Below, in pieces: positions 22,152 to 30,671 of a stretch of DNA of 64,000 nt. The notes under the pieces were generated by a model. That model worked only from the letters and a program-made list of their open reading frames with translations, ran no database searches and was not told the DNA's origin. Position numbers and translations under genes: made by a program. Every line of letters begins with the position of its first letter. Position 1 is the first letter of the stretch. The DNA lies in assembly GCF_054482595.1 (NCBI RefSeq), contig NZ_CM137008.1. One strand, given 5' to 3'.

Positions 22152-22266
22152 TGAGGGACGTATTTGTATTAGTCGCGACTTGATCTGACACATGGCCTTG
22201 AAAGGTTGAGAGTTACCGGTTTTGATATGAGTGTCGAATCCTTATCCAAAACAAGAGGTAACTCTC

Positions 22267-22638
22267 ATGCTTCATACTGCCAATCCCGTCATCAAACACA
22301 AAGCCGGTTTGCTCAATCTGGCTGAAGAACTCAGCAACGTATCAAAAGCCTGTAAAATCATGGGCGTTTCGCGTGATACGTTTTATCGTTACCGCGAACT
22401 GGTCGCTGAAGGCGGTGTGGATGCGCAGATTAATCGTAGTCGCCGCGCTCCTAACCTTAAGAACCGTACCGATGAGGCAACTGAACAGGCTGTTGTTGAT
22501 TACGCCGTCGCTTTCCCGACACATGGTCAGCACCGGGCCAGCAACGAGCTGCGTAAACAGGGGGTTTTTATCTCCGACAGTGGTGTCCGTTCTGTCTGGT
22601 TACTCCATAACCTTGAGAATCTCAAAAGACGATACTGA
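22267..22638 (+). pseudogene. ylbG: truncated transposase-like HTH protein (ylbG-like)
   Basis: 123-aa product from ATG 22267 with AAGAGGT RBS; HTH segment (MGVSRDTFYRYRE) typical of IS transposase N-termini; no catalytic domain follows. Confidence 0.6.
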
Positions 22639-22648
22639 ACAAATTTTA

Positions 22649-22786
22649 TCAGGTGACGTTCCGTAAAAAGTTGTATGGAGTTCTCGATGCAGTCGGCGCG
22701 ACTATCAGTACCCCCGCTGAACCCTGGACTATCGGGCCGCCGTACTGGGGCATGTCACCCTGGCGTGCCGCTGGTTTTCCGCTAAT
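22649..22786 (-). pseudogene. relic of an rhs 5' end (start codon ATT)
   Basis: Minus-strand translation [26 protein letters not shown] matches rhs N-terminus [26 protein letters not shown] at 27827; diverges after about 30 codons, stop at 22649. Confidence 0.55.
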
Positions 22787-23152
22787 GGTTTATTTCCTCT
22801 TTCTTTCCCGGCAAGAATTTATTTTAATCCGGAAGGATTATTTATTTTCAGATAGGGACTCACATTAAACACGTAACATTTTAATTAATGCATGGCTGAA
22901 TATGTATTACACAATGTCAGATATCGTAAAAGACCAGTGCAATTCTATGTAAACTCTCTGACTGTTCATTTTATTTGTTGCTTCAGGGTCGGAACTCACC
23001 CTCAATAAACAACTGAATACGAGTAGATATTCATCGTCTGAGCTATATGGCTTTACACAATAGCCGACATGTCTTTTCTCAGTCAGGATTTTTACTTTTC
23101 CTCACTACGAAGTTGACGACTTCGATATGGGATAGACTCTTAATTCAAGCAA

Positions 23153-23644
23153 TTACTCTGCACAAGCATCAGGCAATCCAGCTCCAATATTTGTTATAAA
23201 ATAATGCGTAACATTAATTTCACCAACAAAAAAAAGATTTACGCTATCCCCTTGCCCTGGTATTTTACCATATTTACACCACACTTTTTTTGTATCTGGA
23301 TCATTCTTTGATACGATTTTCGCCACTTGTTCCCTGGCCCTCACCGTCAATGTTTTCTTAAACCTCCCCCCATCATCGATTGTTAGGGAAAAATAAGAAA
23401 AAAAATAATCATCTTCTACATTTGTGGATATTGATATATCCACCGCTACGTGCGGAAAAAAATCTGGGAGCCATGTAAAAACTCCATCATTTTCTGGTAT
23501 TGCCATATAGTTTATGTAATGCTTACTTACAAGAGATTCATCTTTGTGTAAATAAAGATAAGTAGTCACGCATAAAAAAACAACGATTATAATAGCAAAA
23601 ATAAATATTACCATCTTTGAGATGTTACTTGAGATAGCCACCAT
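23153..23644 (-). CDS. putative Rhs immunity protein, N-terminal membrane anchor
   Basis: 163-aa AT-rich ORF whose ATG lies 20 nt inside the rhs 3' end; hydrophobic N-terminus ([15 protein letters not shown]). Confidence 0.7.
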
Positions 23645-26600
23645 CTTGTAAAGCCTTTATCGTTTTTTTATGCTCTGGATTAATATAATCAATACATCTA
23701 TTTGAGCAATCTTGTGTTAATGGACATGTCAACCCATGTTCATTTACAGCCAAGTCTTTTTTATTATCTTCAATCATCTCAGAATGGGATAACTTTACTT
23801 TTCTGCCGTACATACCGAACATATTTAACCCGTAATCTCTAATCTCTTTTTCATAACCCAGCCCTTTCGCCGATCGGCTAACACCAGCGTCATTTAATTT
23901 AGACACTCGACAAAATGCCATACAATGGAAAAATTGATCAGTCCCACCTAAATTTAATCTCTTCATATCATCATAAGTATCAGATAATATATCCCATGCT
24001 CTTTGATGGTTTAGTTGTTCTTTTTTTCGCATTAACGCTACATCTGCAGGACTTAACCCTAATGGATCAATACCATTCACCGGATACGCATACAGACTCC
24101 ATCCCCCCGCCAGCCCAATCGGGTCCTGAGTAATATATCGTCCCAGCAACGGATTGTAGTACCGGTTCCGGTTATAATACAGCCCCGACTCCTCATCATA
24201 CTGCTGCCCTGGCAGACGGTACGGCTGATACACATGATGCGGGTTCTCCTCATTAAGCTGGTTGCCCCATTCATCATATTCCGCGCTCCACGCCGTATTG
24301 CCGTCTTCGCTGATAAGCGCCAGCGGCAGTCCCCGGTGGTCGCAGTGATAAAGATGAGCTTTTCGCGCCGGTGTGTATTCCGGCTCCACCTGTCTGGCCA
24401 GTTGCTCCACCGTCAGCCCGCACTGCGCAAGCCACGCCCGGCTTTCACTGCTCACGCGGTCTGCCCGGATTTCTTCCTCCAGTCTGTCCAGCAGCCGCAC
24501 CAGTTCAGCCGGAAATACCACGCCGTGCCCGTCCTCGCTCCCTTCCTGCTGCAGCTTCTCCGCCAGGCTGCGGCGCTGCGCTTTCTCCCGCTCGCCGTTG
24601 TCTGTTTCGATGCGGATGAGCGGCGCGAAGCTCCCCGGCTGATATACCGTCTGGATACGCGTGGTGTCGGTCTGTACCGTCGTCAGCCGGTCGCCGTCCC
24701 ACCCGTACCACGTCACCTCCGGTTTCCGCGACAGCGACATCCATCCCGTCAGGTCACGCTCGCGACGCCACACCCGTTTCCCTGTCCGGCGACCCAGCGG
24801 GTCGTAAAGGTATCGGCTCTCGACCAGCGGCTCCTCATATTGGATACGGATGTAATGGACCAGGCGGTGCAGGCTGTCGTAATGGTAGTGATGGGTGCGC
24901 TCGTCGTCCGTCCGTATCACACCCGCCGGGATGCGGTCCGTCTTCTCCGTCAGTCTGCCGTATTCATCGTAGTGGTAAACATAGTGCGCATCCTTCGCGA
25001 TGCGGTTATCCGGCCACACTGTGAGGGTACTGTCCGGGTGCAGCTCCGGGTCCGGCAGGCGGTTTCCCGCCGGGTCGGTGGCATACGGGATGCGGATGTC
25101 CAGGTCCGGTGCGAGGGTACGCACGCTCTCCAGCCTGCCCGTGGCGCTGTAGCCGTATTCCCGCGTCTGTCGCGGGCCGCTGATGCGCACCAGGTCGCCG
25201 TTGTCATTCCACCCGTAGTCACGGTCATACACCAGGCTGTTCAGGTGCTGGCTCTGTAACTGGCCTGCGGGGGTGTATGTGCTGGTCAGTTTATATGCGG
25301 CATTACTGCCTGCCATGCTGCCAAAGCTGCGCACCGTCTCCCGGTGCATGCGGTCGCGCGTGTACTCCAGCAGCGGCGTGTCGCCAAGCTTCATGCCCGC
25401 CAGATAACCGCTGCCGTAGGTCAGCCACTCCACCGGCGGCAGGCTGTCCGGCGTGACGCGGTTTGCCAGCCCCTGTTCGTTGTAGGCGTGTGTTGTCTCA
25501 TGCTGCCACAGCAGTTCCCCCGTCTCCGGGTTCTCCACCGTCTGCCGTTCGCCGGTCAGGCGGCCCTTATCGTCGTAGCCGTAGTGGACAGCGACACGGT
25601 GGCCTTCGCTCAGGTGGCTGATGTCTGTCAGCCAGCCGTGGTCATCATACTGCCACTGCTCTGCCGGTTCGCCGTTCACCGTGCGGTGAGTGATACGGTC
25701 CGATTCATCGTAGTACCAGAGGGTGACAAGCCCCTCATCTTCACTCTGCGTGAGTTTTCCGGTCAGGTCATAATGATAACGCTGCGTCCGCCCGTCAAAG
25801 CCGCCCTGCTGTACCAACCGGTCCAGCGCATCGTAGCTGAAGTCGCTGTGGCTGCCGTTCTCGTTAGTCAGACTGATGACACGTCCGGCAGCATCGTACT
25901 CCATACTGCGCGTCAGCCCGCCCTGCGTGGTGCTGACCGCCTTTCCCCACGCATCGTACTGTGTCTCGCTCCGGTTGCCGTCCGGGGTGATAACGGCAGT
26001 CAGGTCGCCTGCGGCGTTGTACTCATACTGCGTTTCACGGCCCTGTGCGTCTTTCACCGAGGTTAACCGGCCACGGTTGTCATAGTGGCGGTAAAGGCTG
26101 ATACCTTCCTCGCGGTGAACCGCCGTCATCTGGCCGAAGCGGTCGTATTCATAGCGGGTCTGGTAGCCCGAGCAGTCGGTGAACGCCAGCAACTGACCGT
26201 AGCGGCTCCACGTCATCTGCCGGGTGCTGCCCGTCGCATCTGTTGTCGTGGCCGGTAATTCACTGTGCGCATCATCATAGCGGTAGCGTACTGTCTCCCC
26301 GCTGCGCGATGTCTCCGTTACCAGCCTGTCCAGTTCATCATATGCCCGGCGGCTCTCCAGCCCGTCCGGGGACACCACCGCCGTCAGCTGGTTCCCGTCG
26401 TTATAGTAAAATTTCGTCTCCCGCCCGTCCGGTGTGGTGATGTCCGTGATATCGCCGGACACCACATTCAGACCGTACTCTGTCCGCCGTCCCGCCGCGT
26501 CCGTCTGCGCCGTGAGCCTTCCTGCCGCGTCATACCCGCTGTGCGTGACGCTGCCATCCGCCAGTTCTTTTTTCACCACCCGTTTCAGCCCGCCTTCACC

Positions 26601-27827
26601 TTCTGTATGCAGCACCTCACGCCGGTTCAGGCTGTCGGTGACGGTGATGCGGTCCTGCTCATACTGGTAGCGGTAACTCAGGCCTGCCGGGTTAAGCTGC
26701 TCCACCACCCGCCCGGTATCGTCGTAGCGGTAGCGCATCTCCGGCCTTCCCGCATAACGGTGCCCCACCATCCGGCCCGGGTGCTGCGCGTCATACGTGA
26801 AAGCGCGCACCTGTGTCCCGCTGCGGTCATATACCGCCAGCAGTTCACCGGCTTCCGTATACGTGTACCGCGCCAGTGGCGCTCCGGGCAGGCTCTCCGG
26901 GTATGCCGGGTCGTGCATCAGCCACACCGCCAAAAGGCGGATACCCCTGTCGGGGCCGTATTCGGTACCGGGCAGTGTGTCGGGGAACGCTGAGGCTGAG
27001 AGAGGGCGGGGTGTGTCAGGGGAAGATAAGGAAGCGGTGCGCTGTTTACGGGCCTCTTCCGCACGCTGCGCCTGCGTGGTCAGCACCAGACGGAACTCCC
27101 GCCCGGCACCGTCCGTCACGCCGGTGATTTCCCCGGCCAGGTCACCGGCGGCCTCACGCCGGTACGTCAGCGTCCGCCCGAAGCGGTCTGCCAGCCCGGT
27201 AAGCACCCGGTACGGCGGCAGCGGCGCTGGCAGTACGTCCTCAGCACCCGGCACCAGCTCTGACCACCCCAGTATCCACCACGGCCCCTGTGCGCTGTTG
27301 GTCGCCAGGTAAAGATGCGGGCTTAACCGGATATCCGGCGGCAGCGACGCCCACAGCCGTGCCAGCGTATGGCCGTCCGGCTGCGTTGCCTTACCGCCAC
27401 GCACCAGCCACAGGGACTCGCTGCGGCTGTACACCGCCTCACCCGGCAGCAGCGGCTCAAAGTGAATGCTCCGTCCGCCGTTGTCGTTGAGTACCAGTGC
27501 ATCATCGCGTATCTGTAAGCGGATATCAGAAGGCGCTTTCCAGCCGGGGCCAAAAATCCCCACCGGTGCAGGCGTCTTCGTCCGGTAGCTGCTGTAGGTG
27601 CGGGAGAGAATGAACGGCAGCGGGCCGGGCAGCGCAAGGTCCGTCTCGCCGGGCAGCACCTTCGCCCCCAGCAGCGGATTTACCGGGTTGCCCGAAGTCA
27701 TCCCGCCCGGACACACCGAGCACGCCACGCCAGTTGGCGCGCCAATTCTTACACCTGCCGAACCCTGGACAATGGGACCGCCATACTGAGTCATATCTCC
27801 CTGACGCGCCGCTGGTTTTCCGCTCAT
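23625..27827 (-). CDS. rhsD: Rhs-family polymorphic toxin: PAAR-like N-terminus, YD-repeat core, variable C-terminal toxin domain
   Basis: 1400-aa ORF; many YD repeats; core ends at [10 protein letters not shown] (about 24045-24060) followed by about 143 aa of AT-rich unique sequence; sits between ybbP and selU. Confidence 0.92.
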
Positions 27828-28256
27828 ATAAAGTGCCCTTTTAGTTATTGTTCATATCCCTGTGTTAGCAACAAAAAAAATAAAATGACACACAAGACCA
27901 GCTAATGTATTTATATATTTTTCACATAAACTTATTTGTTCTCAATCAACAACAACTGTTATTACAGGTCACTTTCAATATTTTATTAAACTAACATTTT
28001 TAGCACAGATGAATTCATCATCAACAAATTCACTATATGGATAATATCCATTCAACGCATATGATTTATGATTTTATTAGTCTGAGTTATTTTTGTAGGG
28101 CTATATTTAAAATCAATAAACTCCACCGATTCAGATTAATATCAGCAATAGAAAGATAGGAAATCACCAATTCAATAACATCATCAATGAAACATATTGT
28201 AGAATTAATTTAAACAAGGCGTTCCATTCAACCAGAACGCCCCTTATTTACTCTCA

Positions 28257-30671
28257 TCACCCCGCAAACTGCCTGAACAGCGCCTTACCCTTAACCAGTC
28301 GCGCACCCAGCCAGCCGCCGAAAAGCGACAGCAGCAGCGCTCCGCTGCACGGCAGAACAATCCACAATCGCCAGTCTGGCTCCCACGGAAAATCAAACAC
28401 TTTCGCCTGCAACACTGCCAGCGCCGTTTCCGCACCAATTGCGGCCACCAGGCCGGAAACAAACCCAAGCATGGCGAACTCACACCACAACGTGGTACGC
28501 AGCAGTTTTTTCCCCGCACCGAGTGTGCGCCACACCACCAGCTCCTGGTGGCGCTGACGCATACCCACCTGCACCTGTGCCAGCAACAGCAACATACCGC
28601 AGGCGGTGACCAGCACCACCATCACCTCCAGCGCCCGACTTACCTGCTCCAGCACCTGACCGACCTGTTTTAAAATCGCGCCAATGTCTAACAGGCTAAT
28701 GGTCGGGAACTGGCGGTTGAGTTGCGTCAACATGCCGTTGCCATTCTCCCAGCGGAAACTGGTAAGCCAGCTCTGCGGTTGCCCGTCTAATGCCCCTTCC
28801 GGGAAAATAAAATAGAAATTAGGCCGCAGACTTTCCCAGTCCACTTTGCGCAGGCTGGTCACTTTAGCGCGGAACTCCTGGGTATCGCCCATAAAAGTCA
28901 CGGTATCACCGAGGGCAACCTTTAAGCGTTTCGCCAGCCCCTCTTCCATCGACACTTCATCGGCTTTTGGCGGCCAGTTACCGGCGACAATCGGATTATG
29001 ATCGGGCCGCGTATTTTGCCAGGTAAGATTGAGTTCGCGGTTAAGCGCCTCATCTTCATTACCTTCTGTCGGCTTATCGTTAATCGCCGTCAGCCGCGCC
29101 CGCACCACCGGATAAAACGATTCCGGGACTATCTGATGTTCCGCGAGGAACGCTTTTAGCGGTGCTACCTGTTCTGTGGCGATGTTAATTAAAAAGTAGT
29201 TCGGGCTTTCTGGAGGTAGCTGCTGCTGCCAGCGGTCGAGCAGATCACCACGCAACACCAGCAGCAGTGCCAGCAGCATAAAGGAGAGCGAAAATGCCGA
29301 AAGCTGGCTTAACGTTGACCACGGCTGACGTAACAGGCGGCTGACCGCCAGGCGCAGAGGCAGCGATTTCAGCGTCATGCGGCGAAGTACATTCAGCAGC
29401 ATCCAGCCCAGCACACCGCACAGCAAAGCCAGTACTACCGCGCCCGCCAGCACCGCCCAGAGCAGCATACTGCCCCCCATTAATCCGGCGAGCAGCAGCA
29501 CAACCACTACACTGACAATCGGCAGATAAAACTTCAGCGGCCAGACGTTCGCTACCACATCATTACGTAATACGCGTAAAGGCTGCGTTGCCAGCAACAA
29601 GCGGTATGGTCGTAGCCCCACCAGCAGCGAGATGACCGTCATGGTGCCCAGCGCCCATAGCCACGGCCAGAGGCTGGCTGGCGGTAGTGCAGCAGGCAGA
29701 ACGGGCTTGAGCAGCACCATCAACACGTTTTCGAACAACAGGCCTATCGCCCCACCGGTAACGGCTGAAAGCGTCAGCACCATCAACCACTGACCGACGA
29801 TTAGCTTACGCAGTTGCGCTCGCCCTGCCCCCAGCGTTTTGAGGATCGCCACCAGATCGTAGCGACTGCGACAGTAATGATTCATCGCTACCGCCACTGC
29901 TGCCACTGCCAGCAGCAAGGTCAGAAGCGCCGAAAGCAGCAGGAACTGTTGCGAGCGTTCCATCGATCGCCCCAGCGCGCCTTCGTCCTGTTCCAGACCG
30001 TACCAGCGTTGTTCGGGTTTAAGCTGGGGTAACAACCATTTCTCATAGCCGTCGAGCTGGTTCTCGTTGCCGCCGAATTTATAACGCCAGGTGACCCGAC
30101 TCCCCGGCTGCACGGCTCCGGTTTTATCGACATCCGCCAGATTCATCATCAGACGCGGAGCCATCTGGAAGGGGTTAAAACCGGAATCCGGTTCCTGAAT
30201 CACTTCTCCGGCAATCCGCAAGGTGGCATCGCCCACGTCAATGGTGTCGCCCGTTTTCAGGTTAAGCAGCGCCATCAGGCGTGGGGCCAGCAATACGCTG
30301 CCCGCCTGCGGTTTCAGGCCAGGGGGATTAGTTTGCAGATCGCCATACATCGGGTAGATATCATCCACCGCTTTGACGTTCGCCAGCTGCGGTGTGTCGC
30401 CTGCAAATGTCATGGTGGCGAAAGTCAGCTGCTTGCCGACTTTCAGGCCGCGCTTTTGCGCTTCCTCCAGCCATGCTTGCGGCACTTCGCGCGAACTGCG
30501 CAACGCCCGATCGCCCGCCATAAACTCCCGGCTTTGTTGGCTTAAGCCCTTCTCCATGCGATCGCTGATATTGCCCAGCGCCAGCACGCAGGCCACCGCC
30601 AGGCTTAGCGCCAGCCAGACAATTAATAGCGACGGCGAACGCCATTCGCGCCAGAACCAACGTGCAATCAT
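28257..30671 (-). CDS. ybbP: ABC transporter permease, FtsX/MacB-like
   Basis: 804-aa membrane ORF; 4-nt overlap with upstream ybbA. Confidence 0.9.
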   Translation of the reverse strand: MIARWFWREWRSPSLLIVWLALSLAVACVLALGNISDRMEKGLSQQSREFMAGDRALRSSREVPQAWLEEAQKRGLKVGKQLTFATMTFAGDTPQLANVKAVDDIYPMYGDLQTNPPGLKPQAGSVLLAPRLMALLNLKTGDTIDVGDATLRIAGEVIQEPDSGFNPFQMAPRLMMNLADVDKTGAVQPGSRVTWRYKFGGNENQLDGYEKWLLPQLKPEQRWYGLEQDEGALGRSMERSQQFLLLSALLTLLLAVAAVAVAMNHYCRSRYDLVAILKTLGAGRAQLRKLIVGQWLMVLTLSAVTGGAIGLLFENVLMVLLKPVLPAALPPASLWPWLWALGTMTVISLLVGLRPYRLLLATQPLRVLRNDVVANVWPLKFYLPIVSVVVVLLLAGLMGGSMLLWAVLAGAVVLALLCGVLGWMLLNVLRRMTLKSLPLRLAVSRLLRQPWSTLSQLSAFSLSFMLLALLLVLRGDLLDRWQQQLPPESPNYFLINIATEQVAPLKAFLAEHQIVPESFYPVVRARLTAINDKPTEGNEDEALNRELNLTWQNTRPDHNPIVAGNWPPKADEVSMEEGLAKRLKVALGDTVTFMGDTQEFRAKVTSLRKVDWESLRPNFYFIFPEGALDGQPQSWLTSFRWENGNGMLTQLNRQFPTISLLDIGAILKQVGQVLEQVSRALEVMVVLVTACGMLLLLAQVQVGMRQRHQELVVWRTLGAGKKLLRTTLWCEFAMLGFVSGLVAAIGAETALAVLQAKVFDFPWEPDWRLWIVLPCSGALLLSLFGGWLGARLVKGKALFRQFAG

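Follow-up and report, generated by a model that had tools for sequence, protein, structure and literature searches.

Introduction

The rhs genes of E. coli K-12 are known for their low expression in the laboratory. In the Rhs literature of the 1990s, Hill and colleagues reportedly described a GC-rich core that is joined to an AT-rich core extension and to AT-rich flanks. In Salmonella, full-length rhs and its type VI secretion system (T6SS) island are strongly silenced by H-NS (PMC7043789), and derepression upon loss of H-NS has been demonstrated for this SPI-6 locus as well as for bgl of E. coli. A further group of regions that must be considered here are the 78 catalogued 'promoter islands' of E. 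coli K-12, which as a class are described to bind RNA polymerase and to form open complexes, and to yield very little transcript and only oligonucleotides of 9–14 nt (PMC3661553). For E. coli appY, likewise counted among the targets of H-NS xenogeneic silencing, the group behind the promoter-island concept later argued that interference of RNA polymerase and not binding of H-NS is the cause of silencing (PMC7054387).

Here, we describe the spacer between ybbP and rhs in a stretch of E. coli DNA of 64,000 nucleotides, referred to as the window. A sequence-only reading of the window had pointed to an AT-rich gap of approximately 430 bp ahead of rhs, which contains no ORF of 60 aa or more and whose composition was compared to that of nucleoid-protein-silenced promoters of acquired toxin genes. 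Promoter prediction, H-NS ChIP data and a scan for small ORFs or sRNAs were named as possible checks. We establish the anatomy of the spacer, its identity with the K-12 sequence and its membership in an accessory island, while the published binding of RNA polymerase and H-NS concerns the K-12 sequence. The spacer corresponds to a feature catalogued before, the ybbP-rhsD 'promoter island' of E. coli K-12, and the finding is therefore correct and ordinary. Its value as a discovery is small, as the locus, its AT-richness, the binding of RNA polymerase and H-NS and the horizontal origin have all been published for K-12. New are the assignment of the spacer to the RhsD island rather than to the core genome and the terminator-like hairpin of ybbP at its start; in addition, we show that the density of promoter-like signals is at the level set by base composition, that polymorphism is lower than in the flanks, and that the spacer matches no Rfam family and contains no conserved small ORF. 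We propose that the spacer probably represents the leader of the RhsD island, in which a coat of H-NS keeps transcription of rhs low.

Results and discussion

Composition and coding content of the ybbP-rhsD spacer

The spacer and the two genes flanking it are located as follows:

28257–30671, minus strand: ybbP, an 804-aa ORF for a core-genome ABC transporter permease, the stop codon of which forms the island junction
27828–28256, minus strand: ybbP-rhsD intergenic spacer, 429 bp, 28.4% GC
23625–27827, minus strand: rhs gene, 1400 aa, comprising an N-terminal DUF6531 domain, RHS repeats, the RHS core and a variable C-terminal tip

The ORF coordinates place the ybbP stop codon at 28257–28259 and the rhs ATG at 27827, both on the minus strand, with ybbP upstream of rhs and both genes transcribed in the same direction. 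In the annotation of matching genomes, rhs is designated 'rhs element protein RhsD / RHS element core protein' and ybbP 'putative ABC transporter permease subunit YbbP', and the host species of the window is E. coli. The AT-rich gap noticed previously is real: its GC content of 28.4% contrasts with 63.6% in the first 3 kb of rhs, 58.0% in ybbP and a mean of 52.9% in the window. Among all 429-bp windows in the 64 kb, merely 0.013% are at or below this value, and the lowest one (28.2%), which starts at 27824, differs from the spacer by less than 0.3 percentage points. The approximately 300 bp past the hairpin described below have a GC content of 22–30% (roughly 26%) and contain nine A/T tracts of at least four bases, and TpA steps occur 10.5 times per 100 bp of spacer as compared to 4.2 times in the window. 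Near-matches to the H-NS motif TCGATAAATT (at most two mismatches) are enriched approximately four-fold (4.7 versus 1.1 per kb), the best matches in the spacer still having two mismatches. Thus, the spacer has the AT-rich tract, far below the genome average and of sufficient length for spreading of H-NS, that characterizes H-NS-silenced regions.

No ORF of at least 60 aa in the ORF list lies wholly within the spacer, in agreement with the sequence-only reading. The longest contained ORF has 40 aa (28037–28159, plus strand), and a 91-aa out-of-frame ORF in ybbP reaches 13 bp into the spacer.

A second AT-rich zone, with a GC content falling to 31%, is present at 23121–24100 and covers the C-terminal tip of rhs and an overlapping downstream ORF of 163 aa (23153–23644), which has no Pfam match. 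These two presumably form a toxin/immunity pair. The rhs tip yields a sub-threshold Pfam match to serum amyloid A, and a resemblance to this protein has likewise been reported for RhsD of EDL933. The arrangement of a 63.6% GC core (first 3 kb) between a 28% GC leader and a tip and immunity region falling to 31% GC resembles the Rhs architecture described by Hill and colleagues, as does the presence or absence of the RhsD element as a unit between mnmH and ybbP. In contrast to other H-NS-silenced regions, the coding core of RhsD is GC-rich and AT-richness is restricted to the leader and the 3' toxin/immunity end.

Transcription and translation signals in the spacer

Inspection of the spacer revealed the following elements:

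28216–28243, minus strand: terminator-like hairpin, 13 nt after the ybbP stop codon, with a stem of 10–11 bp and a loop of 6 nt, followed by UUGUUUAAAUU
27989–27961, minus strand: predicted sigma-70 promoter TTAATA-17-TGTAAT, the -10 hexamer of which ends 134 nt upstream of the rhs ATG
27945–27917, minus strand: second promoter-like site in the sense of rhs, TTGAGA-17-AAAAAT, a consensus match only (9/12)
27836–27840, minus strand: Shine-Dalgarno-like AAGGG, 8 nt before the rhs ATG, read off the sequence

A stretch of 67 nt that includes the hairpin folds with -17.1 kcal/mol (centroid -15.2; z = -2.9 as compared to shuffles), and the U-tract UUGUUUAAAUU following it is interrupted. Judged from these features, the hairpin most likely terminates the ybbAP transcript. 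Termination at this position would imply that rhs needs a promoter of its own. The hairpin and the second promoter-like site at 27945–27917 were found by consensus scanning. The sequence TTAATA-17-TGTAAT at 27989–27961, which is published for the K-12 spacer (see below), has one exact match only in the window and is the best candidate for the promoter of rhsD. The putative 5' UTR of approximately 130 nt shows no structure beyond chance (z = +0.56 relative to shuffles).

A simple consensus scanner reports 39.6 promoter-like sites per kb of spacer (at least 8 of 12 matches) as compared to 8.3 per kb in the window, a 4.8-fold difference. However, the 17 sites observed in the spacer, 7 in sense and 10 in antisense orientation, compare with 24.8 ± 7.0 expected from first-order Markov simulations with matched dinucleotide frequencies, and in another scan, two sites were observed versus 1.4 expected in dinucleotide-preserving shuffles. 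As the density does not exceed the expectation from base composition, the 'island of promoters' is a by-product of AT-richness and not a designed feature.

Published binding data for the K-12 spacer

The sequence of K-12 MG1655 is 99.8% identical to the spacer over the 423 bases compared (27828–28250). The sole difference is one extra A of K-12 in the homopolymer at 27872. The K-12 spacer comprises positions 522831–523260 of NC_000913.3, with ybbP ending at 522830 and rhsD starting at 523261, and no annotation is present within it in this curated record or in the E. coli records listed. Presuming an offset of 776 bp between NC_000913.3 and the older U00096.2 numbering, the following feature could be mapped onto the window:

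~27909–28212, no strand: footprint of promoter island 522099_304, covering ~304 of the 429 bp, mapped from K-12 coordinates with an error of ~1 bp

This region is listed in Table 1 of Panyukov & Ozoline 2013 as '522099_304 ybbP(+)/rhsD(+)', one of the 78 promoter islands, and carries four flags of horizontal transfer, as GIST assigns it to a genomic island and three further predictors consider it foreign (PMC3661553). Its H-NS code 'A' denotes interaction according to all studies, that is, those of Grainger, Oshima and Kahramanoglou. Thus, H-NS occupancy has been detected at the K-12 spacer in every ChIP study compared (PMC3661553). Shimada et al. 2014 recovered the ybbP>rhsD spacer in vitro by genomic SELEX with RpoD holoenzyme alone, marked it 'HNS' for the H-NS SELEX site it contains and gave TTAATA-17-TGTAAT as its predicted promoter (PMC3946193).

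With a single base separating the two sequences, the window spacer is itself a member of the K-12 catalogue: it represents the same locus as 522099_304 of Shavkunov, Panyukov and Ozoline (PMC3661553), and nothing of substance differs. The features in common are AT-richness, a high density of promoter-like signals on both strands and the position beside a horizontally acquired gene, H-NS binding being published for K-12; by our simple scanner, however, the signal density is that of the base composition. The spacer also resembles the cases of H-NS xenogeneic silencing, such as appY and bgl of E. coli and the T6SS/rhs locus in SPI-6 of Salmonella, in that an AT-rich tract with published H-NS occupancy lies upstream of an acquired toxin gene and laboratory expression is low. 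The comparison with silenced promoters of acquired toxin genes made in the sequence-only reading is therefore supported by the binding of H-NS and RNA polymerase in K-12 (PMC3661553, PMC3946193) and by the membership in an accessory island. All binding data refer to K-12 and not to the strain of the window.

The spacer is the ybbP-proximal end of the RhsD island

Comparison with genomes lacking rhsD delimited the following region:

~22154–28254: variable RhsD island (~6.1 kb) between mnmH and ybbP, with the spacer as its ybbP-proximal end, defined by homology with rhsD-less genomes

Of 5426 complete E. coli genomes, 2868 (53%) carry the spacer, with 98.3–100% identity and in a single copy in every case. 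Genomes without the spacer retain ybbP, but homology ends 2–5 bp past the ybbP stop codon and resumes on the far side just past the stop codon of mnmH. As homology breaks at the ends of both genes, the spacer is the end of an accessory island and not intergenic DNA of the core genome. Carriage by just over half of the genomes and the alternative cargo found at the same site, which is described below, mark the region as horizontally acquired or accessory DNA.

By sequence comparison, the leader is restricted to the RhsD locus. Within the 5426 complete genomes it occurs at one place per genome, and no copies were detected upstream of other E. coli rhs loci, which differs from the Rhs architecture of Hill and colleagues. 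A 21-mer from the promoter block that is invariant among strains (see below) had no exact match in ~100,000 species-representative genomes. A degenerate pattern for the first 13 codons of rhs retrieved 14 loci from E. albertii, Pseudocitrobacter, Lelliottia, Paracidovorax/Acidovorax and metagenome-assembled contigs. The DNA upstream of these 14 loci had no significant similarity to the leader, and comparable AT-richness was found only in two of the metagenome-assembled contigs. In other genera, rhs genes that share this N-terminus are preceded by unrelated DNA.

Polymorphism of the spacer

Diversity was determined from an alignment of nine sequences (seven distinct over the full 3.4 kb), which were picked across the identity range. 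Variable columns and mean pairwise differences were as follows:

Spacer: 14 of 429 columns variable (4 indels), mean pairwise difference 1.2%
ybbP 3' end, all sites: 87 of 1494, 2.1%
ybbP third codon positions: 73 of 497, 5.5%
rhs 5' 1500 bp, all sites: 185 of 1500, 5.1%
rhs third codon positions: 106 of 500, 8.5%

Within the 3.4 kb compared, polymorphism is lowest in the spacer (Fisher p = 7e-10 for the spacer relative to ybbP third positions), and the segment 27874–27994, which contains the predicted promoter TTAATA-17-TGTAAT, is invariant in the nine strains. With a single exception among 2906 genomes, divergence from the window allele stays within ~1.7%. Within the rhs core, diversity reaches a peak of 9–11% at 26728–27127, as compared to 2–5% around it, which points to a mosaic formed by exchange with the rhs cores of paralogues. 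Diversity in the first 100 bp of rhs is 1.1%.

The low diversity of the spacer could reflect constraint. It could equally result from a young island and a lower mutability of A/T sites, seen beside an rhs core whose diversity is inflated by exchange with paralogues. A more specific proposal would be purifying selection on a regulatory switch, composed for instance of an H-NS nucleation site and an anti-silencer site that turns rhsD on. Insertions of IS elements or MITEs near the -35 hexamer, such as the one in strain 24AR0357, might then be activating alleles, and IS insertions are known to activate bgl. We regard such a switch as doubtful, as a young island with low A/T mutability leads to the same low-diversity numbers.

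The insertion in strain 24AR0357 (L006, ~473–585) is an element of 109 bp, which is flanked by a TTAG target duplication and resides at the position equivalent to 27999/28000 of the window, 10 bp upstream of the predicted -35 hexamer of rhsD. It has terminal inverted repeats of 16 bp (GGAAGGTGCGAATAAG...CTTATTCGCACCTTCC), which we take to resemble the ends of IS5. Among 5426 complete E. coli genomes, only 32 contain the element, one of them in as many as 31 copies; it resides on chromosomes as well as on plasmids and is mostly unannotated. It appears to be a rare MITE with recent activity.

Proposed H-NS silencing and alternative explanations

How could the spacer keep rhs transcription low? 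According to the proposed silencing by H-NS, the hairpin would end the ybbAP transcript at the start of the spacer, and the ~300 bp of ~26% GC DNA that follow would offer many weak sigma-70-like sites on both strands as well as an extended surface for binding of H-NS. A weak promoter, with TTAATA-17-TGTAAT ~130 nt upstream of the rhs start codon as best candidate, may then generate an mRNA with an unstructured 5' UTR and the AAGGG ribosome-binding site. RNA polymerase can bind the leader DNA alone; in the cell, H-NS may coat the AT-rich tract and allow little productive transcription of the rhs toxin gene. In this regard, the sequence-only reading matches the published binding data and is supported by them. 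We infer that occupancy by H-NS, and not weakness of the promoter alone, would limit rhsD expression. The locus would represent a textbook-clean case, in which the terminator of a core gene is directly followed by an island-borne, AT-rich and silenced leader ahead of a toxin gene. In contrast to bgl and SPI-6, derepression upon loss of H-NS, or an expression value from an hns mutant, was not found for rhsD in the literature mentioning this gene together with H-NS. Similarly, a mapped transcription start was not found in the rhsD literature covered here.

Alternatively, overlapping weak promoters on both strands could hold RNA polymerase in complexes that abort or collide, in which case H-NS would not be the cause. 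The sense and antisense promoter-like sites in the spacer and the open complexes and short oligonucleotides reported for promoter islands as a class (PMC3661553) are in line with this possibility. Moreover, in the appY study, mutants with altered activity had lost surplus start points, with H-NS binding virtually unchanged (PMC7054387). Nonetheless, we regard promoter crowding as an unlikely explanation: the density of promoter-like sites is no higher than composition predicts, the experiments in question concern appY or the island class and not the rhsD island specifically, and H-NS occupancy is documented for the ybbP/rhsD spacer of K-12 (PMC3661553). In addition, crowding and silencing by H-NS are not mutually exclusive. 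It is also rather improbable that AT-rich junction DNA simply came along with the island and that the promoter is weak or activator-dependent, with H-NS binding being inconsequential. K-12 is not known to possess a T6SS, and thus there may be no selection for rhsD expression in this strain. Even the best promoter candidates reach no more than 9 of 12 consensus matches, and the failure to find derepression data for rhsD would also fit. However, RpoD holoenzyme alone selects the spacer in genomic SELEX (PMC3946193), and its position as the least polymorphic part of the region is unlike what is expected for neutral junk.

The conservation of the spacer might also be explained by a hidden small gene, encoding either an sRNA or a small protein. 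Indeed, the mean pairwise difference is far below that of ybbP third codon positions, and in the 'empty' allele of the same site there is a small gene for a type I toxin, annotated as dinQ. All the same, we consider a hidden gene highly improbable. Scanning of 27300–28800 against Rfam in E-value mode gave no match at E ≤ 1, and no conserved small ORF was found, so that the scan for sRNAs and small ORFs suggested earlier remained without a candidate. The putative 5' UTR is no more structured than shuffled sequences, no Shine-Dalgarno-like sequence precedes the start of a 29-aa ORF at 27905, the sole start that was inspected, and the curated K-12 record has no annotation there. Coding by the small ORFs of the spacer was rejected, as all of them have at most 40 aa and the two that span position 28144, with 40 and 27 aa, are frameshifted by a 1-bp indel in three of nine strains. 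Likewise, we discarded the possibility that the spacer represents a type I toxin locus in decay, since it shares no similarity with the dinQ-like 'empty' allele beyond the end of ybbP.

Alternative alleles of the mnmH-ybbP site

Across strains, the mnmH-ybbP site carries three kinds of toxin cargo, namely Rhs, an Hcp-fused effector with DUF2931 genes, and a DinQ-like toxin. In the 'empty' allele (L002 and L003, 7706–7789 each), a gene of 27 aa, annotated by PGAP as type I toxin DinQ (dinQ), is flanked by hairpins and REP-like sequence. The Hcp(TssD)-DUF2931 island (L004) represents another alternative. At its start (L004, 7842–8009), it has its own terminator-like hairpin after ybbP and a spacer of 168 bp with 23.8% GC before the toxin gene. 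Thus, the Hcp-DUF2931 leader repeats the layout of the RhsD leader with unrelated sequence.

In strain AL.H8 (L007, 5249–6042), an IS1 element is located 36 bp past the ybbP stop codon, just after the hairpin, and the remainder of the spacer as well as rhsD are absent. This allele looks like an IS1-associated deletion inside the AT-rich leader. Finally, the island end distal to ybbP harbours an ORF of 135 aa (22231–22638) with winged helix-turn-helix domains (HTH_29 and related), with mnmH on one side and the rhs immunity region on the other. Its counterpart in other strains is annotated as the pseudogene ylbG, and the ORF probably represents what is left of a transposase.
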